From contig CAVTKN010000013.1 in NCBI GenBank assembly GCA_963735285.1, positions 5,758 through 69,757 of the forward strand: a DNA stretch of 64,000 nt, written 5' to 3'. Both the position numbers and the translations under genes were made by a program. This document shows positions 1,185 to 40,116 of the stretch, in pieces (the first letter of the stretch is position 1; each line of letters begins with the position of its first letter). Below the pieces are notes generated by a model. That model had not been told where the DNA came from. It searched no databases and was given only the letters and a program-made list of their open reading frames with translations. This DNA is from an uncultured Alphaproteobacteria bacterium (GTDB taxonomy: Bacteria; Pseudomonadota; Alphaproteobacteria; Rhizobiales; Xanthobacteraceae).

Positions 1185-1372
1185 ATGTCGAAGAATCCAA
1201 TGTTGATGCTTGTCATCTTTTCCGCGTCGCGGCCTGGCAGATCTACGACATCGCGAGCGCGACCGAGGTGCCGGGCCGCGCGGTGATGATCCTGCAATAC
1301 GTGTTGCTCGCAGGGCTCCTGCTCGGCATCGCTGGCTCGACCTATAACGCCCTGCGCGCGCGGCAGGAGTAG
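1185..1372 (+). CDS. small two-TM membrane protein, possibly frameshifted
   Basis: ATG 1185 follows CAGGGGG. MSKNPMLMLVIFSA continues sensibly in the ORF 1109-1372 frame as VAAWQIYDIASATEVPGRAVMILQYVLLAGLLLGIAGSTYNALRARQE. The 188-nt span is not a multiple of 3, implying a 1-nt deletion near 1221-1232. Weak call. Confidence 0.3.
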
Positions 1373-1410
1373 TTCCGGTTTCCGTCACAAGCGCAAAGAT
1401 AACGCTGGAA

Positions 1411-1617
1411 CTAGTCGCTCACCGCTTCGTCGTCAGGTTTGGCGCCGAGCCGATCGGCAGTCGTGCCGGCCTTGATCAGCTTGCGCTGACGGGCGACGGC
1501 GAGCTGTTCCCAGGTCGCGGCCATCTGTTCCAGCTGCTGGCGATGGGTCGGCGGCGCCGTGCGCGCCATTTCCCGGCATTCGGCGGCGTGCTCACGATAC
1601 TCACTCAATTTTCTCAC
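1411..1617 (-). CDS. small conserved hypothetical helical protein
   Basis: GTG at 1617 is preceded by GGAAGGGG. The last 68 codons of ORF 1411-1917 (VRKLSEYREHAAECREMARTAPPTHRQQLEQMAATWEQLAVARQRKL...) look protein-like. The upstream part of that ORF is Arg/Gly-rich shadow sequence. Confidence 0.4.
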   Translation of the reverse strand: MRKLSEYREHAAECREMARTAPPTHRQQLEQMAATWEQLAVARQRKLIKAGTTADRLGAKPDDEAVSD

Positions 1618-1706
1618 GGAATACCCCTTCCCCGCCAACCCCACATATAATGTCGGGCCAGGCCCGTTCCGTTCCCGGCGGGCGCCAAAATCAGGATCAA
1701 TCGGGG

Positions 1707-1865
1707 TCAGCGCGGCGCGTCGGAATGGCAGGTTCCGGGGCCCTGGTCGTTCCATAGCCAGCCGCATTTGGTGCAGCCGCCAAGGCTCGCGGCCAGCAGA
1801 GCAAGGCCAAGCAGCGCGGCCAATCTGGCCGCCGCAAGCCGGGTCACGGTTTGTCGAGTCGCCAT
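1707..1865 (-). CDS. 52-aa putative lipoprotein
   Basis: Own translation: MATRQTVTRLAAARLAALLGLALLAASLGGCTKCGWLWNDQGPGTCHSDAPR. It has a signal peptide with lipobox L-G-G-C and a Cys-rich mature part. It falls below the 60-aa ORF-track cutoff. Confidence 0.45.
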   Translation of the reverse strand: MATRQTVTRLAAARLAALLGLALLAASLGGCTKCGWLWNDQGPGTCHSDAPR

Positions 1866-2254
1866 GTGACAAGCTTAGCCGATTGCGCCGCGTCCGGCGA
1901 GCGCCGGCGCGTCCCAAAAAAGCTGCCGGAGCCAGCGCGACTCATCCGCCCGATGAGCACCCGATCGAAGGACGGCCGCGTGATTGTCGTTTTGGGCGCG
2001 TTCGCCTCCGTTTCGCGCCGTCGTATTTTGACGCTTACGTCCAAGCGCGTGTCGCTTACGTCCGCGATTGTGGGTCTGCTCTCATGTAAACGAATGTCTA
2101 CCGGCCTTTTTTTCATCAACCAAAGCCCTATATGAACGTCCGACCATGAATGCCAACCTTGTGGTGCAATCCGGCCTCACGCGACGTCACGTTTTAAGTA
2201 ACGTCGGTCTTCGCCGTTCCGTTTGCGCTTCAAGCCGAACCGAAAGACACACCG

Positions 2255-3160: not shown

Positions 3161-3162
3161 AT

Positions 3163-3326: not shown

Positions 3327-4571
3327 ATGACAGTGTCGAAGACCGTGACCCCGCTGCTGCTTCTGCTCGGGGCAACCATTGCGATGCCGGCGCAGGCCGA
3401 GGAGCTCCGCCTCGGTTTCATTGCGCCGATGACCGGCCTTTTCGCGCAGGTCGGCAAGGACATGAACGACGGTTTCCAGCTTTATCTCGACGAGCACGGC
3501 AATAAGCTCGGCGGCATGGACGTAAAGTTCATCCTCGAGGACGACCAGGCCAAGCCCGACCTTGGCGTCACGAAAGCCAAGAAGCTTATTCTTCAGGACA
3601 AAGTGAACATGTTCATCGGCGGCGTGCTGGCCTCGACCGGCTACGCGCTCGCGCCGGTGAGCACCGCCGAAAAAACCATCTACATCCCGTCTATCCCGGC
3701 CTCCGACGATCTCACGCAGCGCGAGGCGGCCAAATATCCGTACCTGATCCGCACCGGCTGGTCGTCTTCGCAGCCGCACCACGCGCTCGGCGCCTGGGCC
3801 TGCGAGCAGGGCTACAAGAAAATCGTCACGGTCGGTGCCGACTATGCGTTCGGATACGAGTCGGTCGGCGGCTTCCAGAAAGCCTTCGAGGATTGCGGCG
3901 GCAAGGTCGTCCAGAAAATCTGGCCGCCGCTCGGCAACAAGGATTTCGGACCCTACATCCCGACCATCAAGGCGGATGCCGACGCCATCTTCTCGCTGAT
4001 GGTGGGGCCGATGGCGGCGCAATTCCCCAAGCAGCTGCGCGCGGCCGGCTACAAGAAACCGATCCTCGGCGGGGGCACCAGCTATGACGAGTTCGCTTTG
4101 CCCTTCATGGGCGACGAGGTCGTCGGCGACGTCTCCTCGCTGCAATACAGCGCCGCGCTCAAGACGCCGAAAAACGAAGCCTTCGTGAAGGCCTACCGCG
4201 CCAAATACGGCAAGGTGCCGTCCTACTTCTCGGAGAGCAACTACACCACCGCGCAATTCATCGACGAAGCCATCAAGAAAGCCGGCGGCAAATGGCCGGG
4301 CACCGACGAGTTCATCAAAATCATGTCGGGCATCAAGGTCGATGCGGTGCGCGGCCCGGTGAGCCTCGACGACATGCGCAACCCGGTGCAGAACATCTAC
4401 ATCAAGAAGGTCGAAAAGATTCAGCTGTTCGGCTACGACAAGCCGGAATTGTGGAACACGGTGATCAAGACTTATCCGAACGTCAGCCAGTTCTGGACCT
4501 ACGGAAAAGAGAAATTCCTGGCGCAGCCGGTCTACAGCCGCGAATTCCCGCCCTGCAAATTCTGCGAATAG
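3327..4571 (+). CDS. ABC transporter periplasmic substrate-binding protein, LivK/branched-chain amino acid type
   Basis: ORF 3243-4571. ATG 3327 gives the signal peptide MTVSKTVTPLLLLLGATIAMPAQA. LRLGFIAPMTG...GADYAFGYESVGGFQKAFEDCGGKVV is typical of the Leu/Ile/Val-binding family. Confidence 0.85.
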   Translation: MTVSKTVTPLLLLLGATIAMPAQAEELRLGFIAPMTGLFAQVGKDMNDGFQLYLDEHGNKLGGMDVKFILEDDQAKPDLGVTKAKKLILQDKVNMFIGGVLASTGYALAPVSTAEKTIYIPSIPASDDLTQREAAKYPYLIRTGWSSSQPHHALGAWACEQGYKKIVTVGADYAFGYESVGGFQKAFEDCGGKVVQKIWPPLGNKDFGPYIPTIKADADAIFSLMVGPMAAQFPKQLRAAGYKKPILGGGTSYDEFALPFMGDEVVGDVSSLQYSAALKTPKNEAFVKAYRAKYGKVPSYFSESNYTTAQFIDEAIKKAGGKWPGTDEFIKIMSGIKVDAVRGPVSLDDMRNPVQNIYIKKVEKIQLFGYDKPELWNTVIKTYPNVSQFWTYGKEKFLAQPVYSREFPPCKFCE

Positions 4572-4755: not shown

Positions 4756-6013
4756 ATGAACAAGCTGTCGCGAATTCTTACGCTCGGCCTTGCCGCCGCG
4801 CTTTGCGCTTCGGCGCATCGCTGCCGGCGCGCAGGCGCAAGAACTCAAAATCGGTTTCTTGGCGCCGCGCACGGGTATCATCACCCAGCTCGGCACCGAC
4901 ATGGTCAACGGCTTCCAGATGTACCTGGACGAACATGATGGCAAACTTGGCGGCGCCAAAGTCAACTTCATCGTCGAGGACGACAAGGGCACTGTCGATG
5001 GCGATGTGTCCATGGCCAAGAAGCTCATCCTGAACGACAAAGTGGACATGATCGTCGGGGCGGTGCTTGGCACGGCGGCCTACGCATTGGCGCCGGTTTC
5101 GAACCAGGAAAAGACGCTCTTCATCGGCACCATCACCACGGCGGACGACATTGCCCAGCGCCAATCCGACAAATTTCCCTTTACCGTCTTCTCCACCTGG
5201 GTCTCGTCGCAGCCGACCCATGCGCTCGGGCAATGGGCTTGCGAGCAAGGCTACAAGCGCGTCTCCGCGATCGGCACCGATTACGCCTTCGGCTACGAAC
5301 AGGTTGGCGGCTTCCAGAAGGCCTTCGAGGATTGCGGCGGCAAGGTCGTGCAGAGAATCTGGGTGCCGTTCGGCACCAAGGACTTCGGGCCTTATATTCC
5401 GGGCATCAAATCCGACATCGACGCCATCTTCTCGTTGATGGTCGGACCGATGGCGCTGCAATTTCCCAAGCAGCTGCGCGCATCCGGCAACAAGACGATC
5501 ATTCTGGGCGGCAGCACCAACTATGACGAGTTCGCTTTGCCCTTCATGAGCGACGAGGTGATCGGCGACGTCTCGGCGCACGTCTACAGCGCGGCCTTGC
5601 AGACGCCGGCAAACGAAGCCTTCGTCAAGAAATACCGCGCCAAATACGGCAAGGTGCCGTCGTATTATTCGGAAGCCAATTACGCCACCGCCATGTGGAT
5701 CGACCAGACGCTGGCGAAGTTTAATGGCAAGTATCCCGGGCCGGCCCAGTTCATCAAGGCGATGGCAAACATCGAGATCAACCCGCCGCGCGGTCCGGTG
5801 CGGCTCGACCTCGCGACCAAGAGCCCGATCCAGAACATCTACATCAAGAAAGTCGAGAAAAAGAAGATGTTCGACTACGACAAGGATGAGCTCTGGAACA
5901 ACGTGCTCAAGACCTACACCAACGTCAGCACATATTGGAAATACGACCCGGCGCAGTTCAAGGCACAGCCGGTCTACAGCCGCGATTTCCCGCCCTGCAA
6001 ATTCTGCGATTAG
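4756..6013 (+). pseudogene. paralogous LivK-type substrate-binding protein; the signal peptide lies in a different frame from the mature domain
   Basis: ATG 4756 follows GGGAGGGA and encodes MNKLSRILTLGLAAALCASA in the frame of ORF 4639-4938. The mature protein (IAAGAQAQELKIGFLAPRTG..., ORF 4790-6013) is in the next frame. The junction is about 4811-4822. The protein closely parallels the upstream paralog. Confidence 0.7.
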
Positions 6014-6092: not shown

Positions 6093-8079
6093 CTAGTGCG
6101 CGTTTTGAATAAAGCCGCTCAAAGCATCGCGGATGCGCGCCACCACGCCGTCCCACGCGCGCCCCTCGTCCTGCCGGAACAAACGCGCGGTCGGATACCA
6201 GGGACTGTCCTCGCGCGTGAGCAGCCAGCGCCACTCCGGCACATAGGTCAGCGTCACCCATATCGGCTTGCCCAGCGCGCCGGCGAGATGCGCGACGCTG
6301 GTGTCAACCGAGATGACCAGATCGAGTTCGCCAATCAGCGCCGCGGTATCCGTAAAATCCTTCAACGCGTCGCCGAAATGCAGAATGTCGGGACGCGCCT
6401 GCCAGCACGGGCGCATCGTCCGGGCGCACTTCCTGGTGCAGGCTGACGAAGGTCGCGTCGAGCGCGAGCAGCGGCAGGAAATCCGCAACCCGCATCGAGC
6501 GGTCACGGTCGCGTTCATGCGTTGCATTGCCCGACCAGCAGAGCCCGATGCGCAGCCGCGTTCTCGCGCCCAACCGTGCGCCCCACTCCGCCGCCAGCTC
6601 CGGGCGCACGCCGAGATACGGCACCTGCGCCGGAACGGTCTCGAGCCGCGTGCCCATGGCCAGCGGCAGACTGAGCAAGGGGCAATGCAGGTCGAAGTCC
6701 GGCAGCGGATCGCCCTTCGCAATGACAGCCGACGGCCCGGCCAAACTTCCCATCAGCGCCACCAGCGGCGGCCGCACTTCCAGAATCACGCGCGCCCCGC
6801 GCGCGGCGATGAGCGTGGCGTAACGGCAGAACTGGATGGCGTCGCCGAAGCCTTGCTCGCCGTGCAGAAAAATCGTCTTGCCCGCGATATCCTCGACACC
6901 GAGCCACAGCGGCTGCGGAAACTCGCGCTTGGCCGGCGCCATGTCGGCCTTCTTCCAGCGCCACTCATATTCGGCAAAGCCGCGCGGTAGGTCGCCGATC
7001 AAGAGCCGCATCGAGGCTTCGTTGCAATGCGCGACGATATTGTCCGGCAGTGCGGCCAGCGCCCGCGCCGAGCACGCCATTGCCTCGTCATAGCGGTTGA
7101 GTTCTTTCAGAACCTTGCCGCGGTTGTTGAAGCTGTTGCCGTCGTTCGGCCGCGCCAGCAGCACGCGGTCGTAGCAGGCGAGCGCCTCGTCATAGCGCCC
7201 CAGCTCGTGCAAGGCATTGCCGCGGTTATAGATCGCGTCGGTGTAGTCCGGCACTAACGACAAGGCACGATCGTAATTCGCCACCGCCTCGGCGTACCGC
7301 TTCATCTCGCCGAGCACGACGCCCCGGTTATGGTAACCTTCGGCATTGTTCGGCACCAGCGTGAGGAGACGCTCGAACGCCGCCAGCGCCTCGTCGAAGC
7401 GCTTGAGCTGCGCGAGCAGGATGGCGCGATTGGCATAAGCCTCGGCGAAGTTCGGCAGCAGCGCGATTGCCCGGTCGTAGCACGCCAGCGCTTCATCAAA
7501 GCGTCGCAACGTGCGCAACGTATTGCCGCGATTGCAGAGCGCGGGGAGCGAACCGGGTTGCAGCGCGAGCGCACGGTCGTAGCCTGCCAGCGCCTCGTCG
7601 AAGCGCCCGAGCGCGTTCAGCGTAATCCCGCGATTGGTGAGCGCGTCGACATAATTCGGCTGGTGCGCCAGCGCGCGCTCGAAGCTCGCCAGCGCTTCCT
7701 CATGCCGCTGCAGGATTTGCAGGACCACCGCGCGGTTGTTGATCGCGCCCACGTGGTCGGGCTTGAGCGCGAGCGCGCGGTCATAGCTCGCAATGGCCTC
7801 GTCGAAGCGCTGCAATTCCTTGAGCGTGTTGCCGCGGTTGCTGAGCGCGTCGGGGTGATTGGGCTGGACGGTGAGCGCGCGGTTATAGCTGGTCAGCGCC
7901 AGCTCGTGCTTGCCCTGCGAAGCGAGCACGACGCCCAGTACATATTGCGCGTCGAAAAAGTTGGATTTGGTGGCAACGATCTTCTGGCAGATCTGTTCGG
8001 CTTCGCCGAATTGCCCGGCCTTATAGGACGCAATCGCCTTGTTCAACTGCAGCGCAAGCTTCGACGGTTGGGCCGACAT
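6093..8079 (-). pseudogene. TPR-repeat protein fused to a glycosyltransferase family 9-like C-terminal domain, frameshifted
   Basis: ORF 6304-8079 holds about 10 TPR units (…YNRALTVQPNHPDALSNRGNTLKEL…) then ...LCWSGNATHERDRDRS...FVSLHQEVRPDDAPVLAG. The sense continues in ORF 6093-6722 as RPDILHFGDALKDFTDTAALIGELDLVISVDTSVAHLAGALGKPIWV... The junction is about 6394-6400. Confidence 0.75.
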
Positions 8080-10809: not shown

Positions 10810-11011
10810 TCAGGGCTGCGGCGTTTTCTGCGCCGCCAGGGCCTTCATGGTGGGGTAGTTGACGTGCAGGTCGTAGATCGACATCGCGTTCTGCACCGAG
10901 GCCTTCCTCGCGTCGGTGTCGGCGGCTGTGGGGCTGGGCGCCGTGACGACCCTGACGACGAGAACTCAAGGCGGAGACAGCAACAAGAGTGGCAAAGGCT
11001 TTGCGCAGCAT
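10810..11011 (-). pseudogene. small secreted protein, apparently frameshifted
   Basis: ATG at 11011 is preceded by GGAGG. MLRKAFATLVAVSALSS continues sensibly only in the next frame as ...VVTAPSPTAADTDARKASVQNAMSIYDLHVNYPTMKALAAQKTPQP, with the stop immediately before the terminator. The span is 202 nt, not a multiple of 3. The junction is about 10950-10960. Confidence 0.4.
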
Positions 11012-11149: not shown

Positions 11150-12724
11150 CTACTCCGCCGGGATTGGCGTGGCCGGCGCAGTGGGTGCGGTGGCGGCCTG
11201 CGAGGGCGCCGTAGGACCTTTTAGCGGACGCTCTTCCATTGAAATCAGGAAGGCCATCCCGAAAGACAACACCAGCGCGCAGGCGAGGAACACGAAGCGG
11301 AAGGCGTAAGCGAGCTCCGGCGCAGACGCCGTGCGCGCCAGCATCTCCACAGACATGCCCGCAACGCCACCCAGCCCGCCGAGCACGATGGCGCCCAGCA
11401 CCGCCACCACCAGCGCGGAAAACAGCGCGCGGAAGAAATTGGCGGCGCCCGTGGCAACGCCCATCTGCGAGCGCGACACCGCGTTCTGCATGCACACGGT
11501 GGAAACCGGAAACACGGTGCCGAGCCCGCAGCCGATGATCATCAGCAGCAGCAGCACCAGCGCCGTCGGCATCGAGCCCGGCCAGATCGCCAGCGGCACC
11601 AGCGAGACGATCGAGATCGCAAGCCCGGCCAGCGACATGCGCTTGTAGCGCGCCACATGCATCATCAGCCGCCCGGTGATGGTGGACATCACCACGGTGG
11701 CCGCCATCAGCGGGATCAGCGCCATGCCGGATTGGCTGGCGGAGAGATGCAGCACCACCTCGAAATACAGCGGCACGAAATATCGTCATCCCGACCAGCG
11801 TGCCCATGTTGCAGGCGCCGGCGAGCGTCGCGCAGCGCACCACCGGGTTGCCCAAAACAGTCAGGGGCAAGAACGGCTCCTTCGTCGACACCAGCCGCCA
11901 GGCAAACAGCCCCCACAGAAGCGCCGAGGCGAGCAGCAGCGCGCCGATCTGCGCCGAGATCCATTCGTAAGCCCGCCCGCCCCACGACAGCGCGAGCAGC
12001 AGCGCGATCGCCGCCGCCATCATCAGCAGCGCGCCGATCACATCGAGCTTGTGCTTGCGCGGATGAAACGGCACGCGGCGCAGCACGCTCGAGGTCATGC
12101 CGAGGGCCACCAGGCCGAGCGGCAAATTGATCCAGAAAATCAGCGACCAGTCGATATGTTCAGTCAGAAAACCGCCGAGCACCGGCCCGCCCACCGAGGA
12201 GGTCGCGAACACCGCGCCGATATAGCCCTGGTAGCGGCCGCGCTCGCGCGGGGAAACAATGTCGGCGATGATGGTTTGCGCGAGCGCCATCAGCCCGCCG
12301 CCGCCGAGGCCCTGGAAGGCGCGGCCCAGCACCAGCTCGGTCATGCCGGGCGCCAGCGCGCAGGCGACCGAGCCCGCGACAAAAGTGCCGATGGCGATGA
12401 GCATCAGCACGCGCCGGCCGTGGATATCCGCGAGCTTGCCGTAGAGCGGCGTCACCGCCGTGGCGGTGAGCAGATAGGCCGTCACCACCCAGGACAGGTC
12501 GCTGATATTGCCGAAATGCCGACCGATGGTGGGCAACGCTGTGGCGACGATGGTCTGGTCGAGTGCACCGAGGAACATCGCCAGCATGATGCCAAGCACG
12601 ATGGCGCGGATTTCCGGGTGCGTGAGGCGGGCGGATCCGGCGGGGCGGCGGCTGCGACGTGCGGTTTGCCGCGCGGCTCCGCCTTGGCGGGACTTGGCTT
12701 TGCTTTCGGTTTTCCGGAGGTCAT
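11150..12724 (-). pseudogene. MFS drug:H+ antiporter of the EmrB/QacA (DHA2, 14-TMS) type, frameshifted
   Basis: ORF 10845-12599 is good MFS sequence up to ...ACNMGTLVGMTIF. The sense continues in ORF 11150-11776 as VPLYFEVVLHLSASQSGMALIPLM... The junction at about 11777 is a T-run/extra base. The probable N-terminus MTSGKPKAKPS... (ATG 12724) is in yet another frame relative to ...RLTHPEIRAIVLGIML. Confidence 0.8.
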
Positions 12725-12904
12725 CAGGGATCGTTGAGGTGAAACTCGAATTTGAAGTTGCGGTTTAAGCTTGAAAATGCGGTTTAAATGCAAGGACTCA
12801 ACTGTGAACTCAATGGTCGCCAACCCGCTGAATGCCTTGCCGGTTCCGCCGATGCAAGACGCGATGTTGCGGGGGTGGTATGTCGGATGGACGCATGCAA
12901 AACC

Positions 12905-13852: not shown

Positions 13853-15512
13853 TCATGGAAAATGCTCGGCGTGCCAATCGGCTTCCAGCTCCGGGTTGAT
13901 CTTGGCGTCGATCAGGAAAACGCCGGGTGCCCCTTCGCTCACCCAGCTTCGCAACGAGTCCAGGTCGGCAACGGTCCGCACTGTCGCCGCCCGTGCGCCA
14001 TACCCGCGGGCAATCGCGGCGAAATCAGTGTCCGGAAATTGCACGATATCGATCGAGTAGCCCTGGCGCCGGAAATAATGGACTTCAGCCGCGTAGGAGC
14101 TGTCGTTGTAGATGAGGATGCACATTCGCAGCCCGAGACGGATTGCGGTCTCCAGGTCGGCGATCGACATCAGGAAGCCGCCATCGCCCGCGCCGAGCAC
14201 AGCCAACTTGCCTGGATTTGCGATTGCCAAGCCGATCGCCGACGCCAGCCCAAGACCGACCGATTGAAATGAATGACTGAGACATGACGCTTTCGGATTG
14301 GGCACGCGCAGATAGCGCGGCACCCATCCGCAGAAATGTCCGGAGTCGGACGCAACCACGCGATCTTTTGGCAAAATATCGTCCACCGCTTTGCTCAGCG
14401 TGCGCGGGTCGATGAAGCGCGCAGTCAATTCATCCGGATACGGGCTGTGCTGGTTGTCGCCGGAACGGATGCGTGCGCGCGTCGCGTCGTCGCGGCGGCC
14501 TGCCCCCTTCACCGCAGCCTGCCGGCCAAGCTCCGCCAGCAGCGCCTCGGCGGTTTCTTTCGCATCGCCAAGCACGGCGTGTTGCACCGGCATCTGGTAG
14601 CCGAGCTTCGCGGCCTCGATATCAATTTGCGCAACGACCGTGCCCGGCCCGATCAACTTGCCTTTCTTGGTCGTCCATTGCGTGAAACTCACGCCAAAGC
14701 CAAGAATGAGATCGCTCTCGGAAATCAACGCATCCGCCGCCGGCGAGGAAAAGCCGCCGCTGATGCCAACCGACCATTGATCGTCTGCAAACAGGCCGTG
14801 GCCGCAAATCGATGTCGCGAGCAACGCGCCGATGCGATCGGCCAGCGCCATCAAGGGCTTTTCGGCTCCGGACAGGACGGCGCCACGTCCCGCGATAATG
14901 AGTGGCCGTTTGGCGCGCGCCACGGCTTCGGCCAGCCGGCGGACATCCTCAGGATTCGGCTGCAGGCGCCCCGGCTTTGCGACCCAATTCGGGCGGCGCG
15001 TTGCTGCCGTTGAGTTTTGCATCCTGCACATCGAGCGGCAGGCTCAGCACAACGGTCTGGCGGTCGTGCAAGGCGCGCGTCACCGCGCGCAACAGATCGC
15101 CGCGGGCGGATTGCGGGCTGTCAACGCGTTCGGAAACGGCGCCCACCGAGCGCACCAGCGCCGCCTGCTCCATGTAGAAATTCGATTTGACATTGCCGGT
15201 CGGCACGTCGCCGGCAAGAACAAGAAGAGGCGTGCGGCTTTTCGCGGCCTCGCCGATCCCGGTGATCGCGTTGGTGAGGCCGGGCCCGGAATGCACGCTG
15301 ACCAGCGTCAGCTCCCCGGTCGCCTTGGCATAGGCATCCGCCATGCTGGCGGCATTGCCTTCGTGACGCGCTGAAATCAGTTCGACGCCGGCCTCGACCA
15401 GTCCGTGCGAAATCTTGAAATTGGCCGTGCCGAGCAAACCGAAACAGCGGCGTGCCCCAAGTGCCGCGAGATCTTTTGCCAGGACCGCGGCGACTGTTGA
15501 ATCGTTGCTCAT
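13853..15512 (-). pseudogene. thiamine-diphosphate-dependent enzyme (acetolactate-synthase-like family), frameshifted
   Basis: The N-terminal PYR domain is ORF 14949-15512 (…HEGNAASMADAYAKATGELTLVSVHSGPGLTNAITGIGEA…). The central and PP domains are ORF 13853-15031 (…GAGDGGFLMSIADLETAIRLGLRMCILIYNDSSY…). The frames differ and the junction is about 14995-15017. Confidence 0.8.
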
Positions 15513-25748: not shown

Positions 25749-26340
25749 GTGCGGCTGCTGATCGGAACGCTGTTTGCCCTCGCCGTCGCCGCCTTCGTCG
25801 GCCTCGGCCTGACGTATTATGCGCTGAGCCGCGGCGCCGCCTTCGGCGGGCTGTCGATCGACAGCTGGGATGCCTACCCCAAGACGGGCACGGTGGAGGC
25901 CGATCCTTACGCGCGCGCCTCGATCGCGCGCAGCGGGCGGCTGCCGATTGCGCTGGGCGACGGCGTGTCGTTCACGGTGCAGGAGGATGACGACGGCAAG
26001 GTGCTCGACGGGCGCTGCGACGTGGTGCTCTCCGGCATCACGCCGGTGGCGCGCTACTGGACGCTGACGCTGTACAATCCGGACGGCGGCGCTGGTCGCC
26101 AATTCGGTCGGCCGCTACGGCTTCACCAGCGAGGAAATCGCGCGCAAGGCCGACGGCACGTTCGAAGTGGTGGTGGGCCCGCGCGCCAATGCGGGCAACT
26201 GGCTGCCGACCGGCGGCGTCGAGCGCTACGAGCTGATCTTGCGGCTCTACGACACCGCGGTCGGCGTCTCGACCAAGGCGGGGCGCGAAGTCCCGATGCC
26301 GGGGGTGTTGACCAGGAGTTGCCCGGGGAAGGGCCAGTGA
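25749..26340 (+). pseudogene. DUF1214-like membrane-anchored protein, frameshifted
   Basis: GTG 25749 gives VRLLIGTLFALAVAAFVGLGLTYYAL...ARYWTLTLYNPDGG. The sense then continues in the next frame as LVANSVGRYGFTSEEIARKADGTFEVVVGPRANAGNWLPTGGVERYELILRLYDT... to TGA 26340. The junction is about 26088-26093. Confidence 0.7.
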
Positions 26341-28453: not shown

Positions 28454-29383
28454 ATGGTGAAGCTTCCCGCGTCCTCTCCCTTGGACAGCCTGGTCGACCT
28501 GGCGTGCCGGGATGGCGTCGAGATCCGCCCGACTTTGCTGCGCGTCCTCACTGATCTCTACGTCCAGAAACCCAGCCACAGCCCCGAAGAAGAAGCGCAA
28601 TACGTCGAGCTAGCGCTGGGGCTGATCGACGCGGTCGACCCGCTCACCCGCGGTACCGTCACCGCCACGCTGTCGGCCTACCCCGGCGCGCCCGGAGGTG
28701 GTTTTACGCAAGCTCGCAAGCTTGCCGCTGGCAAGCCGCCGCGGCGACGCCGAGGGCGACGACCTGATCGAATTGTTCTTCGATGCCAATACCGATGAAC
28801 GCCGGCTGATCCTCACCAATCTCGATGTCACGGCCGACGCGGCCGACGCTGCGTCCCATGCCGGCGGCGAGCGAGCTCATCCGCCGGCTGGAACGCGCCG
28901 CGCGCGAGCGCAACAGCGGCGAATTTGCCCGCGTGCTCGAACGCGCGCTCGGCGTGAGCCGCGAGCTCGCGACACGCATTACGCGCGACCCGTTCGGCGA
29001 GCCGCTGGTGGTGGCCGGCAAGGCGCTCGGCATGAGCGCCGACATGGTCCAGCGCATTCTGCTCTGCCTCAACCCGGTGATCGGGCAATCGGTCGAGCGA
29101 GTGTTCGAGCTCGTCGGCCTTGTTCGACGATCTCAACGCGGCGGCCGTGCACCGCATGCTCACGATCTGGCGCGCGACAGCGGCGCAGCGGCATGTGGTG
29201 ACGAGGGGGCAGCAAGCCGCAAGCTCCGTCCTCTGCTGGAACGGCAGCCCCAACATCCGTTCGTCCCCGCGAAAGCGGGGACCCAGAGGCAACACACTGC
29301 AGAGTCGTGGCGGCCCCTGGATCCCCGCTTTGCGCGGGGATGAGCGGGATAGTGTCACGGGCCGACACCAAAATCCTCCATGA
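28454..29383 (+). pseudogene. DUF2336-like protein with three frameshifts
   Basis: Sense runs through four segments. (1) ATG 28454 ...TATLSAYPGAP. (2) ORF 28698 frame ...LASLPLASRRGDAEGDDLIELFFDANTDERRLILTNLDV. (3) ORF 28825 frame ...ELIRRLERAARERNSGEFARVLERALGVSRELATRITRDPFGEPLVVAGKALGMSADMVQRILLCLNPVIGQSVERVFELV. (4) ORF 29120 frame FDDLNAAAVHRMLTIWR... The 3' end runs into family B repeats. Confidence 0.65.
29258..29352. repeat. family B inverted pair
   Basis: CGTTCGTCCCCGCGAAAGCGGGGACCCAGAGG ... CCCCTGGATCCCCGCTTTGCGCGGGGATGAGCG. Confidence 0.75.
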
Positions 29384-30093: not shown

Positions 30094-30812
30094 TCACTCC
30101 AACGGTCGTCCCGTCATGGCAGCGAGATCGCGCACCAGCCGGTCGGAGATCTGCCCGGTCACCGGCAGCTTGTGGTCGCGCTCGAACTTCTCGATCGCAG
30201 CCTTCGTTGCCGGATCGAACTGACCGCTCGGCTTGATCTGCCCGTAGCCAAAGTCAGCGAGCGCGCGCTGGACCGCCATCACGCGCTTGGAAGGCGCGAT
30301 CAACTTGGCGATCGGATCGGCCGGCACAGGCTCCGCCGTCGTGCTCGCCGCCTTCGCATTGGACGCGATGATCGCGCGCAGCAGGTGTCGCTTGCTTCCG
30401 GATTGATCTTCACGCCGGCGGCCTGCGCGAAATCACGCACGGCGATGTCGGTCTTCGAGCCCCAGATGCCGTCGGCCGGGCCGTCGTAGAAACCCTTGCG
30501 GGTCAATTCGCGCTGGATGCTGGCGATCATCTGCGTGCGCGCCAGCGCCGAGGTCTCCACCGCCGCATTGGGCTGCACGCCCTGGATGCGCGGCGGGATT
30601 GCCGCCTCCTCGCGGTGAAGCATCGGCCGCGCCGCAAAGATCGGCGCCGGATGCGGCCCCTTCTGCAAAAACAGCGCGTTGACGAAAATCGTGAAGGTCG
30701 CAACCGTCGCCATCAAAATGGCAACGAATTCGCGCGGATGCTCGCCGATCACGGCGGCAAAGCGGCCGGCGGTTTCGAAAGTCGTTTCCCTGCGTGCGGA
30801 TCGCCTAGGCAC
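30094..30812 (-). pseudogene. membrane-anchored protein with two peptidoglycan-binding (PG_binding_1-like) domains, frameshifted
   Basis: ORF 30300-30812 reads ...IQRELTRKGFYDGPADGIWGSKTDIAVRDFAQAAGVKINPEASDT. The sense continues in the ORF 30094-30327 frame as LLRAIIASNAK...VMAVQRALADFGYGQIKPSGQFDPATKAAIEKFERDHKLPVTGQ. The junction is about 30384. Confidence 0.7.
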
Positions 30813-32641
30813 TTTTCTTCACCTGATAATTTGTAACGACGGGAATGTCGCGCAACTCTTTCGCACTGCGTTCGGCCACCAGCTTGATCGGGTTGGCGGC
30901 GCGCGGACGATCGCCCTCGATCGGCAAACGCACGGTGACGCGCGTGCCCTCGCCGAGACGGCTGCGGATGTCGACCTCGCCGCCGTGCAGGCCGACCAGG
31001 CCCTTGACGATCGACAGGCCCAAGCCTGAGCCGTCCTGGCGGCGGTCATACGATGCATCGGCCTGGAAGAAGGCCTCGCCCAGGCGCGGCAGGTCGGCCT
31101 CGCCGATGCCGACGCCGTTGTCCTCGACCGTGACCGCGAAGTTCGGCCCGTCGCACAGCGCGCTCACGGTGACGGCGCCGCCGCGCTGGGTGAACTTGAT
31201 GGCATTGGAAATGAGGTTGATCAGGATCTGGTTGAAGGCGCGGCGGTCGGCCGCAACGTCGGGCAAGCCGTGCGCGAGGCGAATTTTAAGCTCGATGCCG
31301 GAATCGCGCGCCTTGAGCGCCAGCAGGTCCGTGCAGCTTTCGATGGCCGCGGCCGGCGCGAAGGGCTCGCGCGTGATCTCGAAATGACCGTTTTCCATCT
31401 TCGAGACGTCGAGGATGCCGTTCACCACCGCCAGCAGGTGCCGGCCGGACTCGTTGATCAGCCGCGCGTACTCGAGCTTGCGCGCGGCATCGAGCTCGAG
31501 CGTCTCGTTGGTCAGCATGTCGGAGAAGCCGATGATGGCATTGAGCGGCGTGCGCAGCTCGTGGCTCATGGTGGCGATGAAACGGCTCTTGGCGGCGCTG
31601 GCGCGATCGCTCTCCGCGCGCGCGGCTTCGATGGTCAATTCCTGCGCCTTGCGGTCGCTGATATCGCGCAGCACCGCGACCACTTCACGGTCGGCTGGCT
31701 TATCTTCACCGGCGGCGTAATTGCAGCGGCCGGCAGCGCATCTCGGCCCAGATGAAGCGGCCGGCATGCTGTGCATCGGGCTCGCGGCGGATGCGGAATT
31801 CGAGCGCGCGCTCTTCGTTGCGCGTGGCGGCATCGGACAGCGCGGCGAGATAAGCGGGGCGATCGGCGACATGGACGCGGTCGAACAGGCCATTGCGCAA
31901 CAGCTCGTTGAGCGGCACGCCGAGCAGCGCTTCGGCCGCCGGCGAGACAAACAGCACGGCGCCGTTGCGGCCGTGGCGCACGATGACGTCCGTCATGTTG
32001 CGGGCGAGCAGCCGGTAGCGGTCTTCTTCGGCGTGCAGCATCCAGAAACTGGTGCGCGTGAGCTGCTCGGCGCCGAGCGCAAGACCGGTGGCGTAGAGCG
32101 CCGCCGGGATAATGCCGAGGGCGGCGAGGATGTGTGTTTGCGCCGGCGCCAGAGACGCGGGCAGCGAGCCGGCAAAGCCAAGCGCGAGCAAAAGAGAGGC
32201 CGCGGTCAGCGTAAAGATCGACGCCAGCACGATGACGCGGCGCGAGGCGGAGAGCGCGGCTTCCAGCGGCACGACCACCAGCCAGATCGCGGCGAACGAG
32301 CCGATGCCGCCGGTGAACAGCGCCAGCGTGCCGGCGAGAACCGTGAGCGACAGCGAAGAGAGAATGTGCGCGGTTTCGTAGCGGCCGGTTCGCGACAGAT
32401 ACGTGACGATCAGGATCGGCGCCACCAGCCAGGCAAAGACGCCGACCTCGAGCGCGCCCGGCACGCCGCGCAGGACAATGTATATGGGGAAGCTTGCGAG
32501 CGCGACGAAGCTGCCGAGCAGGCGCGGCGCGATGAAGGCGCGATGGCGCGCAGCCGTCAACGCATCCTGCCGGGCCGTTGGGTGGACCAGGGCGTCGACG
32601 TAATTCCAGATTGGCGTGAGAAAACTCACCGTCCCTGTCAC
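30805..32641 (-). pseudogene. sensor histidine kinase (multi-TM N-terminus, PAS, HisKA, HATPase_c), frameshifted
   Basis: ORF 31706-32641 gives the TM region and PAS start (...DRYRLLARNMTDVIVRHGRNGAVLFVSPAAE...GRFIWAEMRCRPL). ORF 30805-31950 continues NYAAGEDKPADREVVAVLRDISDRK...SRFIATMSHELRTPLNAIIGFS...GSGLGLSIVKGLV. The junction is about 31718-31724. Confidence 0.8.
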
Positions 32642-33257: not shown

Positions 33258-33733
33258 ATGTTCTTTCTTCTGCGTATGGCGTTCTGGCTGGGCGTTGTCT
33301 GCGTGCTGCTCTCGAGCGGCGGCCAGTCGACGTCTCCCGAAGCGCAGATCGATGCCGCGCAAGCGGTCACGCTGGCGAGCGCCGCGGTGACCGACGTGCG
33401 CGGGTTCTGCGAACGCCAGCCCGATGCCTGCGAGGCCGGCGGCAAGGTCGCGGTTGCGATCGGCCACAAGGCCGAAGCCGGCGCGCGCACGCTTTATGAC
33501 TTCATCAGCAGGCTGCGCGAGAAATCGGCCGACAAGGCCGACGGCATGACGGAAAGACCGACAGCAAGACTGTTCCCGCATCACTGGCCGGTAAAAGCAA
33601 TGCGGGCACCACCGGTAGCGTAGGCACCTTGGGCCATACGGGCACTCTGACCCCGACGGATCTCACACCCGCCTGGCATGCCCCGGTTCCGCTGCCGCCG
33701 CGCCGCGACGCACGCGCCAACCCGGCGGCGTAG
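33258..33733 (+). pseudogene. DUF5330-like small membrane protein, frameshifted
   Basis: ATG 33258 gives MFFLLRMAFWLGVVCVLL...FCERQPDACEAGGKVAVAIGHKAEAGARTLYDFI...KADGMT. The sense continues one frame over as KTDSKTVPASLAGKSNAGTTGSVGTLGHTGTLTPTDLTPAWHAPVPLPPRRDARANPAA, stopping at 33731-33733. The junction lies in the A-run at 33553-33555. Confidence 0.65.
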
Positions 33734-34399: not shown

Positions 34400-34445
34400 G
34401 TCTCCACGAAAAAATTGGTCACGCAGCGCGGGCTCACGCCTTCCG

Positions 34446-34622: not shown

Positions 34623-34659
34623 TGACCTTTCGAACGGAGTCTGTCGGTCGTTCACTCCG

Positions 34660-35283
34660 TCACACACTCTCCACCCCAAACTCCGCATCCTCCGCCAGCC
34701 ACGTGCGCACAGGCGCGCGTCGTGGCCCGCGCGCCTGCGCGGCATAGCCGTAATGCCGGGCAAGGCGGTCGAGCGCGAGCAGCAGCACGACCTTGCCGGA
34801 GCGCGCCGGCCAGGCGCGGTCGCGCTCGACGTCAACGATCCCCTTGAGGAAGCAGCAGATGTCGACCAGCAGGCCGGCGAATTCCGGCCCGACTGAATCG
34901 AGCGCACCATGCACGCGCTGGCGCGCCGCCACCATCGCGTCGGTCGCGCTCGCTGCGCGCTCGCCGCCACGGCGGCCGGATGAGATCGGGCTCGACCAGC
35001 TGGCGGTGGTGCGCGGCATCAGATGCGCCAGCGTGAAATCAACGCGCAGGCGTTCGCCGGCCTGCAACTGATGCTGCTCGATCAGCGCGCGGCCATCGCG
35101 CCCGCGCCGCCGCGCGAGCCAGGCCAGCGGGCTTTCACTGTCATCGATCGTGACTCTGGCTTTTCCAAATTCGGAAACGATCTCGCGTTCCGCCAGCGCC
35201 AGATGACGCGCGCGAAACGCTCCGACCTCGGCCCGCGGCTGGTCCGGCACCGCGCGGATGGGTCTGCGTCCGGGCACGCTCAT
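34660..35283 (-). CDS. DUF6456-like protein
   Basis: 207-aa intact ORF: ...ESPLAWLARRRGRDGRALIEQHQLQAGERLRVDFTLAHLMPRTTASW...GPEFAGLLVDICCFLKG... The family assignment is from memory. Confidence 0.55.
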   Translation of the reverse strand: MSVPGRRPIRAVPDQPRAEVGAFRARHLALAEREIVSEFGKARVTIDDSESPLAWLARRRGRDGRALIEQHQLQAGERLRVDFTLAHLMPRTTASWSSPISSGRRGGERAASATDAMVAARQRVHGALDSVGPEFAGLLVDICCFLKGIVDVERDRAWPARSGKVVLLLALDRLARHYGYAAQARGPRRAPVRTWLAEDAEFGVESV

Positions 35284-35442
35284 GGGCGGGCCCGGTGGTT
35301 GTCACGTTTGTTCAGACGGTCATTTCCATTCATCAGCGCATTCCTTGATAGGAATACGTACCTATTCGATCGCGGTCCGATGCGCAAGACGATTTAGGAA
35401 TTTTATCCGAAATTATTTTGTGGGGGGAATGCGTGCGCCACA

Positions 35443-35692
35443 CACTCTGTCATGCCCGGGCTTGTCGCGGGCATCTCGCTTAGGAAGGCACTGCGTCCCT
35501 AAGCGAGATCACCGGGACATAGGCCGGTGCGACAGCGGACGGCCGTGCCTGTGATGGAGCGGGACGTACTGCCCAGGCGATGACAGCGGGACAAGGCGAC
35601 TGCACGCTCCTATGCGAGACTGCCCGGCGATCAAGTTTACAGGCACGGCGTCCGGCTAAGCGAGCCGGACCCGGTAAGCCCGGGCATGACGG
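35443..35692. repeat. family A cluster (at least four units, some degenerate)
   Basis: CTCTGTCATGCCCGGGCTTGTCGCGGGCATCTCGCTTAGG ... CCTAAGCGAGATCACCGGGACATAGGCCGGTGCGAC ... GGCTAAGCGAGCCGGACCCGGTAAGCCCGGGCATGAC. Confidence 0.8.
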
Positions 35693-35702
35693 CCTTTGGC
35701 CG

Positions 35703-36122
35703 TCACTTCGCCCTTCGCCGGCGTTGCTGGCCGAGGCCCATCTGCTTGGCCAATTGCGAGCGCGCGGCGGCGTAATTCGGCGCGACCATCGGATAGTCGC
35801 TGCTCAGGCCCCATTTCTCGCGGTACTGCTCCGGCGTCATATTGTACTGCGTGCGCAGATGCCGCTTGAGCGACTTGAACTTCTTCCCGTCCTCCAAACA
35901 GACGATGAATTCCGGCGTGATCGATTTCTTCACGGAGATCGCCGGCTTCAGCGGCTCGGACGAGCCCTCAGCCTGTTTGCCCGACACGCGGCTGAGCGCG
36001 GCGTGCACCTGGTTGATCAGGCTCGCGATCTCGCCCGCCGGGACCGTGTTGTTGCTGACATAAGCGGAGACGATTTCCGCGGTCAGCTCGATGAAATTTC
36101 CGTTGCTGTTTGTGTCGCTCAT
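35703..36122 (-). CDS. mucR: MucR/Ros family zinc-finger transcriptional regulator
   Basis: ATG 36122 gives [25 protein letters not shown]...[49 protein letters not shown]. This is a diagnostic Ros/MucR sequence. Confidence 0.9.
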
Positions 36123-36478
36123 TGACGTCGTCCTATGCACGCTGCCGCGTTGCGCTGCCCTCTTCACGTTGCGCGTTCGACACGGATGCCGTCGCGCAGA
36201 CTCTTTTTGCTTTTTAGAACTACTTTTTAGAAACAGACTTCCGATGCCGCCGTTTTGGTGTTCTTTAGCCCTCGCCCGCTATTTCTTGCGCATTACTTCT
36301 TGCGCGCCGAATAACGGTTCAGCCCCTATATTTAAAACTACTATCGGCCATCAATGGCTGCAAGAAAAAGATCGCAGTCTATCGCGACAATTATTGGTCA
36401 AATGCGACTTATACGGCGCGTCATCAACAAAGCCGAAGATGAACCTGGCGCACGGCGCCGGATGAACTGCTGCGCGCG
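36123..36478. promoter_or_regulatory. AT-rich mucR upstream region (likely promoter and autoregulatory target)
   Basis: This is the lowest-GC intergenic stretch nearby (TTTTTGCTTTTTAGAACTACTTTTTAGAAAC..., TATATTTAAAACTACTATCGG). MucR/Ros proteins are known to bind AT-rich DNA and to autoregulate. No site is mapped here. Confidence 0.35.
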
Positions 36479-36506
36479 CTATGTATTCTTCGCTATGAAT
36501 TCTTCG

Positions 36507-37534
36507 CTATGAATTCTTTTCGAGATGGCTGCGCAGCTCATTGATCGAGGCAAAACGCAGGGTGCCCTGCGGCAGCTCGGCCTCGATCGAACCGTCGACA
36601 TAGAGCGTATAGCCCATGCCGTCGACGACGCCCGATTTGAGGATCGCGACCGTGCGCGGCTTTTCCGGTTCCGCGCGCCTGGCGGGCGCGGCACCTGCGG
36701 GCGCACCGGAAGAAAGGCCCGACGAGGGCTTTTGGCAGCCTTGCTCTCGACCTTTCCTTCGGCCGGCCACATTGCGTCGAAATTCGCCGGCTGCGTTCGC
36801 GCAGCCGGATTGGCGTCGAAATTGGCCGGCTGCGTTCGCGCAGCCGGATTGGCGTCGAAATTGGCCGGCTGCGTCCGCGGCGGCGCAGAGGGTGCGCCCG
36901 CTGCGGGCGGCGGCACCCGCCAGTCAAACGAATCCGACGTCCGGTCGAGCGCCCCGGGCGGCATCCCGGCAGGCGCTGGAGCGCCCTGCGGATGGCGCGG
37001 CGACAGCGAAATATCGTCGTCGACCGGCGCCTCATCCGGGTTGGGCAGCGACGGCGCGAAGGATTGGTCCGCTCGCTCGTCCATTGGCGCGCCGGTTTTG
37101 GGCGCGGCCATTGGAGCGCCCATGGGAGCGCCTAAGGGCTCCGGCTCGAAGTCAAAGGGATCGGCCTTCTGCCTTGGCGGAAACGGTGCGCGGCCGCCAG
37201 CGCTAGCTGATTGCGCGACCGGCGCCGGCGTCAGTGCCGACGCAACGGCAGGCGCCAATCCAGCGCCTTTGCGCGGGACGGCGATGGGTTCGAGGTCCTC
37301 CAGGGGCATGGCGAGCCGGGCATTGGCGGGATCGGCCAGCATCCCCGCAATCCGCCGCAGCTGCCCCACGGCGATACCGATCGCGATGATAACGAGGCCG
37401 CCAACCGAGGCGGTGGTGCCGGCGCTGATGAGGGTATTTCCGAAGCTGAACTCGTTGATCGGAATACCAAATCCAATCATCACGAGGCCCGCGACAACGG
37501 CAAATACACCAATGCCAAACAACAAAACCGGCAT
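36507..37534 (-). pseudogene. membrane-anchored Pro/Ala-rich protein with a conserved C-terminal domain, frameshifted
   Basis: ORF 36479-37534 gives two TM helices (MPVLLFGIGVFAVVAGLVMIGFGIP...) and a low-complexity region with a 13-aa repeat. The conserved end, ...AEPEKPRTVAILKSGVVDGMGYTLYVDGSIEAELPQGTLRFASINELRSHLEKNS, is in the ORF 36507-36770 frame. The junction is about 36773. Confidence 0.6.
36771..36887. repeat. 39-bp tandem repeat, three copies (the copy at the low-coordinate end is 38 bp)
   Basis: ATTGGCGTCGAAATTGGCCGGCTGCGTTCGCGCAGCCGG is present in two full copies, plus ATTGCGTCGAAATTCGCCGGCTGCGTTCGCGCAGCCGG. On the minus strand it encodes ARTQPANFDANPA. Confidence 0.85.
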
Positions 37535-37854
37535 GCCCTTCCAATCCTCCCCAGGTCAGTCCCTTTGGACCAGCAACTTTCGCCGTGTTTTGCCGGCTAA
37601 ATTCTTCTGGCAATGGCGAATTCTCGCATTTTTCGAGCGCGGGCGGCAACTCCTAAAGTGACACTTGTCTGACAGAAGGATGTCGGCCACCAGACTCACG
37701 TCTGCCGCACCGGTTTCGGCCCAGTCTGCCGTTGCCCCGGGCCGCGCCACCGCCTAATTAGCTTGGTTGAGGAACTCGCCCGGGGACGAACCGGTTTCAT
37801 CCCGAGGCCGGATTATTCGGCACTTATCCTTTAGTTGTTCGAGGAGGACACATA

Positions 37855-38457
37855 ATGACGTTCAAACTGCCCGACCTGCCTTATTCCCACGACGCGCTCG
37901 CGCCCTACATGTCGCGCGAAACGCTCGAGTATCACCACGACAAGCATCACAAGGCCTATGTCGACAACGGCAACAAGCTGCTCGAAGGCAGCGGCCTGGA
38001 AGGCAAATCGCTTGAAGAGGTGGTGAAGGGCTCGTTCGGCAAGAATGCCGGCCTCTTCAACAATGCCGGCCAGCACTACAACCACACGCATTTCTGGCAG
38101 TGGATGAAACCGAACGGCGGCGGCGACAAGATTCCCGCCAAGCTGAAGGCCAAGATCGACAGCGATCTCGGCGGCGTCGCCAAGATGAAGGAAGATTTCA
38201 CGCAAGCCGGCATCACCCAGTTCGGGTCCGGCTGGGCCTGGATCGCGGTCAAGGACGGCAAGCTGATCATCAGCAAGACGCCGAACGGCGAAAATCCGCT
38301 GGTGCACGGCGCGACGCCGATCCTCGGCTGCGATGTGTGGGAACACTCCTACTACATCGACTATCGCAACCGCCGGCCTGATTATCTCAAGGCGTTCCTC
38401 GACAACCTGGTGAACTGGGAACACGTCGAGGCCATGTTCACCGCGGCGAGCAAGTAA
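37855..38457 (+). CDS. sodB: Fe/Mn superoxide dismutase
   Basis: MTFKLPDLPYSHDALAPYMSRETLEYHHDKHH...NNAGQHYNHTHFW...DVWEHSYYIDYRNRRPDY, preceded by a GAGGAGGA RBS. Confidence 0.95.
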   Translation: MTFKLPDLPYSHDALAPYMSRETLEYHHDKHHKAYVDNGNKLLEGSGLEGKSLEEVVKGSFGKNAGLFNNAGQHYNHTHFWQWMKPNGGGDKIPAKLKAKIDSDLGGVAKMKEDFTQAGITQFGSGWAWIAVKDGKLIISKTPNGENPLVHGATPILGCDVWEHSYYIDYRNRRPDYLKAFLDNLVNWEHVEAMFTAASK

Positions 38458-38512
38458 ACATATCGCCAAAAAGATCGCCAAGACGATCACCAAGAGTTCG
38501 ACCGCTTCCGCA

Positions 38513-38555
38513 CGTCGGTCGGCAGTGACCCCTGCCGACCGATGTGCTGTTTTTG
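38513..38555 (+). terminator. putative sodB terminator
   Basis: Hairpin CGTCGGTCGGCAG-TGACCC-CTGCCGACCGATG followed by TGCTGTTTTT. It overlaps the annotated start of the next ORF. Confidence 0.45.
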
Positions 38556-40116
38556 TGCTGGCTATCGTCGCGATCATCGCGGCCCAGACTTTCCGCGATT
38601 ACGGCCTCGGCTGGGACGACTACACCCATTCGCAATATGGCGAGCTGCTGCTCAAGCTCTACGGCTCGGGCTTCACCGACGATCGCGCGCTCACCTTCGT
38701 CAATCTCTACAAATACGGCGGCGGCTTCGACATGGCGGCCGCATTGGCCGCCAAGGTGCTGCCGTTCGGTCTGTTCGAAACGCGGCGGCTGGTTGGCGCC
38801 GCCGTCGGGATCATCGGCCTGATCGCGACCTGGCGCATCGGCCGCCGTCTCGGTGGACCGGTGGCCGGGCTGGTGGCGTTGCTGCTGCTGGCGACCTGCC
38901 CGCTCTACTACGGCCACATGTTCATGAACGCGAAGGACGCGCCCTTCGCCGCCGCCATGGCCGTGCTGTTGCTCGGCCTGGTGCGCGCATTCGACGAATA
39001 CCCGAAGCCCGGCGTGCGCACGGTTGCGCTCGTCGGCGTCGGCCTCGGACTTGCGTTCGGCTCGCGCATCCTCGCGGGGATCGCGGCGCCCACCGCGCTC
39101 GTCGCGCTGCTGGTGATCGTGATCGACGAAGCGCGCGCCTCCGGATTGCGCAAAGCCGCAACGCGGCTCGGCGAATTCATCTGGTGCCTGCTGCCGGCGC
39201 TGGCGCTCGGCTACCTGATCATGGGGCTGCTGTGGCCCTGGTCGATCGTCTCCCCGCTCAATCCGCTGCACGCCGCCGAATATTTCGACACGTTCTTCGA
39301 GAAACCCTGGCGCGAGCTGTTCGCCGGCCAGCTGATCCCCGTCACCGACATGCCGGTGCGCTACCTGCCGCAGCTGTTCGCGCTCAAGCTGCCGGAAATC
39401 ATGATTGCGCTCGGCCTTGCCGGCGCGATCGGCGCGCTGGTGGCCGCCACGCGGCCGAATTTGCCATTGCCGCGCCGCGCGAATTTCTGTTCGTGGTGCT
39501 GGCGGCATTTTTCCCGGTGGGGCTCGCAATGCTGGCGCACCCTGCCCTCTACAATGGCCTGCGCCATTTCGTGTTCGTGGTGCCGCCCTTTGCGGTGCTC
39601 GGCGGGCTGGCCGGCGGCTGGCTGTTCGCGCAGGCGCGTGCGATCCCTGCGCGCGCCGCGCTCGCAGTTGCGCTTGCCTGTGGCATCGCGCTGCCGGTGA
39701 GCGACATGGTGCGGCTGCATCCTTATCAATACAGCGCCTTCAACTGGGCTTCCGGCGGCGTGCGCATGGCGCACGACAACTACATGCTCGATTACTGGGG
39801 GCTCGCCTTCAAGCAGGCGGGCGAAGCGCTGCGCGTGAAACTCGACGCCATGCATCTCAAGCCGCCGCGCGGGCGGCGCTGGACCATCGAGATCTGCGGG
39901 CCGCAGCCGCCGGCGGAAGTCGCGCTCGGGCCTGACTTCGAAACCACCTGGGACCGCAAGCGCGCGGATTTTGCGATGATGCTCGGCACGTTTTATTGCC
40001 GCGACCTGAAGGCGCCGGTGCTGGTGGAGATCAAGCGCGAGGGCGTCGACTTTGCCCGCGTCTACGACATGCGCGGCCGCGCGATGCCGAACTTGCTGAC
40101 CGAACCACCGCCGTGA
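38525..40116 (+). pseudogene. glycosyltransferase family 39 (ArnT/PMT-like) membrane protein, frameshifted
   Basis: ORF 38525-39700 is good to ...LPEIMIALGLAGAIGALVAATRP. The sense continues in the ORF 38542-40116 frame as EFAIAAPREFLFVVLAAFFPVGLAMLAHPALYNGLRHFVFVVPPFAVLGG... The junction is about 39450-39460. Confidence 0.7.

Follow-up and report, generated by a model that had tools for sequence, protein, structure and literature searches.

The window analysed here is the whole 64,000-nucleotide stretch of contig CAVTKN010000013.1 (positions 5,758 to 69,757, forward strand) in the assembly GCA_963735285.1 of an uncultured alphaproteobacterium. It contains about 13 conserved genes that change reading frame at short insertions or deletions (indels) of 1–4 bp between 4.8 and 39.5 kb, with both insertions and deletions represented. 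The genes affected, the positions of the breaks, the frameshift-free zone that follows them and the copies of an intergenic repeat are collected in Table 1.

Frame-broken genes and their relatives

The G+C content of the window (58–68%) makes spurious long open reading frames (ORFs) abundant, so that frame calls need homology support. Syntenic relatives were collected by exact-protein look-up with intact window proteins, leading to the European Nucleotide Archive (ENA) metagenome assemblies ERZ25039457 to ERZ25039575. All syntenic contigs returned by these look-ups bear Flye-style names ("contig_7144" etc.), share the gene order of the window and are 84–99.9% identical to it over 1–58 kb, none of them being the window itself; individual relatives are referred to by handles beginning with L or S. 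For each gene, an intact orthologue was taken from any sibling contig having one and compared with the window by tblastn. The broken genes run from one frame to another with 90–100% amino-acid identity on either side of the junctions, bearing out the initial annotation, which had counted at least 13 frame-broken genes in the first 40 kb. The orthologues in the relatives tested in this way are intact and in a single frame at the window's junctions.

A junction for which two or more related assemblies provide coverage is private to the window in comparison with all, or all but a few, of up to 15 assemblies, and among up to 15 close relatives none of the window's frame-breaks is shared with any sister strain.

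Table 1. Frame breaks, frameshift-free zone and repeat copies, with positions in the window
Feature	Position	Strand	Details
LivK-type SBP paralogue 2	4800..4830	+	Signal-peptide region; bases added at 4800, 4808 and 4828-4830; three-way alignment with L002 and L003, and translations
TPR protein	6398..6400	-	Extra T at 6400; residues 1-560 in frame -2, 561-661 in frame -3; base absent in L002 and L003
66-aa ORF, doubtful as a gene	10964..10967	-	+1 at 10966-10967; base absent in 3/3 covering samples
MFS transporter	11777..11781	-	+1; residues to 319 in frame -3, 319-527 in frame -1; private vs 4/4
MFS N-terminal region	12626..12726	-	Several small indels vs L001 and L003; variable in all contigs, assignment less certain
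ThDP-dependent enzyme	14970..14992	-	+1 at about 14981; residues 1-181 in frame -3, 174-552 in frame -1
DUF1214	26088..26090	+	+1; base absent in 11/11 covering assemblies
DUF2336	28690..29113	+	+1 at 28690 (private vs 15/15), 28843 (6/6) and 29113 (12/15)
DUF1491	29682	-	Extra A; private vs 13/13
Peptidoglycan-binding protein	30382..30384	-	-1 at 30382; private vs 15/15
PAS/HisKA histidine kinase	31719..31724	-	+1; residues 1-307 in frame -1, 308-608 in frame -2; private vs 14/15
DUF5330	33545..33554	+	Loss of about 4 bp close to 33551; shift from frame 3 to 2
Pro-rich membrane protein	36725..36726	-	-1 at 36725; base present in 6/6 aligned relatives including L106
PMT_2 (GT39-like) glycosyltransferase	39483..39487	+	-1 at 39483; residues 1-321 in frame 2, 321-530 in frame 1; private vs 11/11
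Frameshift-free zone	40400..64000	.	tblastn single-frame to 58 kb; Pfam coverage for 58-64 kb
REP-like copy	8220-8333		
REP-like copy	12911-13037		
REP-like copy	25573-25676		
REP-like copy	26363-26418		
REP-like copy	29481-29533		
REP-like copy	29967-30014		
REP-like copy	32943-33057		
REP-like copy	33780-33897		
REP-like copy	34493-34622		
REP-like copy	35435-35529		
REP-like copy	40145-40262		
REP-like copy	40366-40465		

In the second gene for a LivK-type solute-binding protein (SBP), the gene body (4829–6010) and the start codon at about 4756 lie in different frames, the tblastn match comprises only residues 24–417 in frame 2, and L003 has an error of its own at the spot of the lesion. 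This gene and the one at 3327–4568 are tandem paralogues with about 65% amino-acid and 76% nucleotide identity, and only the second is frame-broken. The sole comparator for the thiamine diphosphate (ThDP)-dependent enzyme is L001, with an orthologue intact at 552 aa. More indels follow in DUF2336, downstream to about 29411. At the histidine kinase junction the 15th assembly is locally too divergent for alignment. The comparators for DUF5330 are three siblings in a variable stretch: L008 has all 4 bases, L004 has 3, and L006 carries a deletion of about 24 bp.

Three coordinates given in the initial annotation were displaced by 23–48 nt. The DUF1491 junction had been assigned to an A6 run at 29705–29710, but the AAAAAA is found in the window and in four of five relatives, and the actual site lies outside it. 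Base-level alignment likewise moved the junctions of the Pro-rich membrane protein and of the GT39-like glycosyltransferase from 36773 and from 39450–39460 to the sites listed in Table 1. The Pro-rich membrane protein gene contains a 39-nt tandem repeat (2.7 copies) at 36774–36879, copies of which are missing in L025, and a 14-nt tandem repeat (3 copies) at 36477–36518 spans its 3' end and stop codon.

Apparent splits of the AraC and DctQ/DctM genes were rejected as errors of the comparator rather than of the window: an insertion at 9168 belongs to L003, and the window DctM spans positions 5–413 of a Pfam model of 413. Two other candidate breaks, at the C terminus of the NMT1 protein (19998) and at the N terminus of the M15 peptidase (13101), are assignable to neither the window nor the comparator contig.

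Distribution of indels along the window

In the segment 40.4–58.0 kb, for which orthologues were taken from a single contig (L005/L013), all 19 genes tested by tblastn are single-frame and 96.6–100% identical to their counterparts. In 58–64 kb, where the assessment consisted of Pfam coverage only, the genes span their Pfam models and no break was shown. The absence of frameshifts beyond 40.9 kb, reported earlier, was thus upheld on these two kinds of evidence. The window-private indels found in 40.4–64 kb all fall within 41.96–42.19 kb, inside or next to the intergenic spacer that separates the GFO and TctC genes. The genes sufE, mucR, sodB and mrcA, described as intact within the dense zone, are indeed unbroken there by tblastn. 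At the gene level, 13/38 genes are broken in the first part and 0/25 in the clean zone (Fisher p = 8e-4; gene counts approximate), and for the last 23.8 kb a Poisson model gives a probability of about 1e-5 that no event would occur. The very uneven distribution noticed in the initial annotation is therefore statistically real.

The density of private indels follows the local divergence between strains. Counted per 2-kb bin, window-private indels correlate with the lowest substitution divergence between the window and any of its siblings (Spearman rho 0.73, p = 1e-4), and the clean zone coincides with 1–8 mismatches per kb to sibling contigs. Compared with S556, the window has 1–8 substitutions per kb at 46–58 kb and 10–56 per kb at 20–46 kb. 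The siblings behave in the same manner: before 44 kb, several private indels per 4 kb occur in S556, S555, S534 and S575, all of which have zero at 44–48 kb, the latter interval being free of private indels in the six closest of eight covering siblings. S542 is clean at 44–52 kb and noisy again at 52–58 kb, where it diverges from the others. On a finer scale, 24 of 43 window-private indels lie no more than 3 bp from a strain-variable site, compared with 14.4 expected from locally matched random positions, a value reached in 2 of 2000 simulations. A comparison of indel density between coding and non-coding sequence by a coding map based on the G+C content of third codon positions (GC3) was dropped, since short frameshifted fragments escape the map, which classed 28690 and 28843, for instance, as non-coding.

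Runs of four or more identical bases contain none of 41 window-private indels. The run lengths at these indels (1 in 15 cases, 2 in 17 and 3 in 9) are near background, and together with the unchanged A6 run they give no support to the homopolymer signature proposed in the initial annotation, a signature that errors of a low-depth or mixed consensus need not show. Homopolymers are not the cause of the uneven errors.

An intergenic palindromic family resembling repetitive extragenic palindromic (REP) or miniature inverted-repeat transposable (MITE) elements, with the core GTCATGGCCGGGCTTGTCCCGGCCATCCCGCTTAGG...CCTAAGCGAGATGGCCGGGACAAGCCCGGCCATGAC, is present in at least 12 copies at 8.2–40.5 kb and in none at 40.5–64 kb. 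The description of the broken part as repeat-dense is correct in so far as this family is limited to 8.2–40.5 kb, but none of the junctions falls within a REP copy or within a tandem repeat. Probably, the repeats do no more than indicate where the genome is more variable.

A 1.3-kb segment at 34381–35715, containing a DUF6456 gene (34663–35283) with a REP copy on each side, is present in the window and in S555, S556, S463, S552b and S457, and absent from S542, S552, S551 and S534, in which sufE adjoins mucR; it is a repeat-flanked presence/absence polymorphism. At 15.6–22 kb, compared with L104, L105 and L109, the neighbourhood of a CxxCxxCC gene differs among strains. It comprises TRAP and NMT1/ABC transporters in the window, S542, S556, S552b and S564, a cluster for gluconate-2-dehydrogenase, GMC oxidoreductase and cytochrome c in S488, and directly the M15 peptidase and MFS genes in S551 and S534b. 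This region is a strain-variable island boundary.

Breaks in sibling assemblies, sequencing technology and selection

Frame-split genes are not restricted to the window, where 11 of 47 genes tested are affected. They number 13/45 in S542, 5/29 in S534, 5/23 in S551, 5/18 in S555, 4/14 in S575, 2/31 in S552 and 1/19 in S556, and 0/19 in a circular 4.1-Mb metagenome-assembled genome (MAG). Which genes are broken, and where, differs from one sibling long-read contig to the next. The mrcA gene is unbroken in the window and cut in three in S542, and the MFS and ThDP genes, cut in the window, are unbroken in S542; the GT39 gene is broken at differing sites in S556, S552, S551 and S542. L008 and L014 (S555 and S556, respectively), which come from different samples, carry identical +1 insertions in the GT39 gene and in the gene of a GFO/IDH/MocA oxidoreductase, at window-equivalent positions 39448, 41092 and 41496, indicating that some breaks in the population recur across samples. 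These shared insertions could represent a real pseudogene in that strain or a sequence-specific systematic basecalling error.

A scan of the GTDB species representatives with the intact kinase yielded 80 Pseudolabrys-like MAGs (Xanthobacteraceae), of which 39 are named "MFD...". Among named relatives, Pseudolabrys MAGs (Xanthobacteraceae, Hyphomicrobiales) come nearest, with about 70–77% kinase identity, while MFD MAGs are closer (84–92%). The source is a Pseudolabrys-like soil alphaproteobacterium of the Xanthobacteraceae, and the Bradyrhizobiaceae label used earlier is probably off. [quoted passage not shown] The assemblies described in that project were built from Nanopore reads with Flye (--meta --nano-hq) and one round of Medaka, with no short-read polishing (PMC12313526). 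The same group reported that Nanopore metagenome bins with a coverage under about 40x "do need Illumina polishing", and that leftover indels fragment gene calls (PMC9262707). Exact-protein look-ups with the window's ABC-F protein, MCM large subunit, N-terminal kinase fragment, CxxC protein and SufE (from its longest start) gave no record of the window's own contig. Judging from its relatives and error profile, the window was most likely obtained from Nanopore reads only.

The frequency of breaks depends on the sequencing technology. In copies of 18 genes around the kinase, 39/581 are frame-split in long-read MAGs (L022–L101, 39 MFD species representatives), against 1/481 in the clade's short-read MAGs (Fisher p = 8e-10). 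Frame-split copies in other public metagenome contigs amount to 2/502, and to 0/74 for the kinase (80 contigs from the Joint Genome Institute (JGI) and others, platform unchecked). Among the 18 genes the highest rate belongs to mrcA (PBP1A, 748 aa), split in 11 of 35 long-read MAG copies and in none of 23 short-read copies, roughly in proportion to its length. Five short-read contigs with 98–99.6% identity align without gaps to the window over 46–49 kb, whereas in long-read siblings gap openings run to dozens per 20 kb.

Substitutions and indels on the window's branch differ in their relation to the reading frame. Third codon positions account for 24/34, 39/55 and 13/17 of the window-private substitutions at coding sites in three regions, and the same bias occurs in each sibling; therefore, the private substitutions are real divergence under purifying selection. 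In the broken genes, third positions hold 34 of the 52 private substitutions upstream of the first junction and 10 of the 19 downstream; the downstream changes (10, 7 and 2 at positions 3, 1 and 2) are too few to decide, although nothing in them points to decay. Unlike the substitutions, the approximately 19 frame-breaking indels on the same branch disregard the reading frame. Premature in-frame stops and large deletions were not noticed in the tblastn segments, which contained only indels of 1–4 bp, although no dedicated test was run. For the 18 genes around the kinase, 480/481 copies in short-read MAGs and 500/502 in metagenome contigs are intact, including relatives down to about 70% amino-acid identity, which indicates long-term selection on them.

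Origin of the frame breaks

The frameshifts are very probably consensus indel errors in a long-read metagenome-assembled contig, and the genes would be intact in the organism. The privacy and reciprocity of the breaks, their dependence on technology and the tests of selection together make this the clear best explanation and pseudogenisation very unlikely. The initial annotation had offered a locally unpolished assembly as one of two options, and the private junctions, the differing breaks of the siblings and the nearly unbroken short-read copies strongly back it. The uneven distribution could be explained as follows. Over its last ~20 kb the window hardly differs from co-occurring, widespread strains, the reads of all of which may collapse onto one path, giving high depth and an unambiguous consensus in the clean zone. 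The first ~44 kb is strain-specific (1–10% divergent) and would be covered by fewer or mixed reads, so that a single Medaka round could leave 1-bp indels. We infer that local consensus quality is the cause of the unevenness.

A variant of this explanation does not depend on low depth and attributes the errors to a chimeric or strain-collapsed consensus, in which the first ~44 kb mixes at least two co-occurring strains and indels arise at heterozygous-like sites. The enrichment of private indels within 3 bp of strain-variable sites is consistent with it, as are several indels situated exactly on differences between L002 and L003 (e.g., 1073, 1224 and 11781). The closest relative also shifts along the window, which is near-identical to S556 and S552 at 46–58 kb and 1–5% divergent from S556 at 20–46 kb, and the source paper states that microdiversity in these soils is high (PMC12313526). 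Since a variable site lies within 3 bp of only 4 of the 11 coding junctions tested, and the same sequence pattern is expected from simple low coverage, strain collapse is a plausible contributor that we nevertheless consider somewhat less probable than its absence.

The other option of the initial annotation, genuine accumulation of pseudogenes, would here mean very recent, strain-specific inactivations in a genome part that is variable, rich in repeats and dispensable. The breaks are indeed located in the more divergent, REP-bearing 0–40 kb, several of the affected genes belong to DUF families of unknown function, and the well-known genes that lie between them (sufE, mucR, sodB and mrcA) are unbroken. 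Yet no junction is common to the window and any of its close relatives, the set of broken genes differs from one sibling long-read assembly to another and includes mrcA itself, and the same genes are intact in nearly all short-read MAG and metagenome-contig copies. The high protein identity persists on both flanks of the junctions, and the third-position bias of the private substitutions points to continuing purifying selection on the window's branch; the lesions noticed are limited to 1–4 bp indels, in-frame stops and large deletions having received no dedicated test. Genuine pseudogene accumulation is thus highly improbable. A mixed situation, in which a minority of the breaks, such as one or two coding indels, would be genuine strain-specific inactivations in a REP-rich, recombining, variable segment and stand amid errors, is also improbable, if marginally less so. 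Programmed ribosomal frameshifting or phase-variable slippage would account for the existence of frame switches and for nothing more. It is refuted by the intact orthologues, which are single-frame at the junctions in other assemblies; the junctions carry neither conserved slippery heptamers nor long homopolymers, and thirteen unrelated genes are hit, so that this mechanism can be regarded as extremely improbable.

Several points weigh against attributing the breaks to consensus error. The long-read, unpolished origin of the window and its membership in Microflora Danica are deduced from its relatives, and the error status of each single indel derives from comparison of sequences, not from read pile-ups. 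The break in the ThDP gene and the possible breaks in the NMT1 and M15 peptidase genes are based on one or two comparators, and the codon-position test has too little power downstream of the junctions. Alignment ambiguity may partly inflate the enrichment of indels beside variable sites, and a correlation between indels and divergence is also produced by real evolution; some of the intergenic private indels are probably real.

The practical consequence is that gene calls, pseudogene counts and "truncated protein" entries derived from this contig and from sibling Nanopore-only soil MAGs, which serve as GTDB species representatives, are unreliable without polishing. Patchy errors that follow strain-specific sequence make accessory and variable regions look falsely rich in pseudogenes, a pattern that could pass for relaxed selection.

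True gene decay, as in Mycobacterium leprae or recent host-restricted symbionts, is characterized by nonsense mutations, deletions, relaxed dN/dS and pseudogenes common to close relatives. The window resembles such pseudogene-rich genomes in that many conserved genes are interrupted by frameshifts, but differs from them in that their hallmarks of decay were not seen, stops and large deletions having been assessed without a dedicated test.

The breaks in the window are instead the familiar gene fragmentation of Nanopore-only assemblies, involving no new biology. Fragmentation driven by indels is known in Nanopore-only assemblies and MAGs, where the problem is gauged by the IDEEL test (Sereika et al., 2022; PMC9262707). 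As there, 1-bp indels split conserved genes into adjoining ORFs in different frames, the breaks are private to a single assembly and missing from short-read assemblies, and their frequency varies strongly among assemblies, down to zero in the circular MAG. Unlike classic Nanopore errors, which are centred on homopolymers, the indels of the window lie outside runs of four or more bases, a better fit to a low-depth or mixed-strain consensus, and their density is strongly patchy and follows local strain divergence. A close parallel is provided by the contigs of Microflora Danica, to which the nearest relatives of the window belong and which carry the same type of private indels. Reduced coding density was reported there for 0.5% of MAGs (PMC12313526), whereas at this locus 6.7% of the copies of 18 genes are frame-split across the 39 MFD species representatives.

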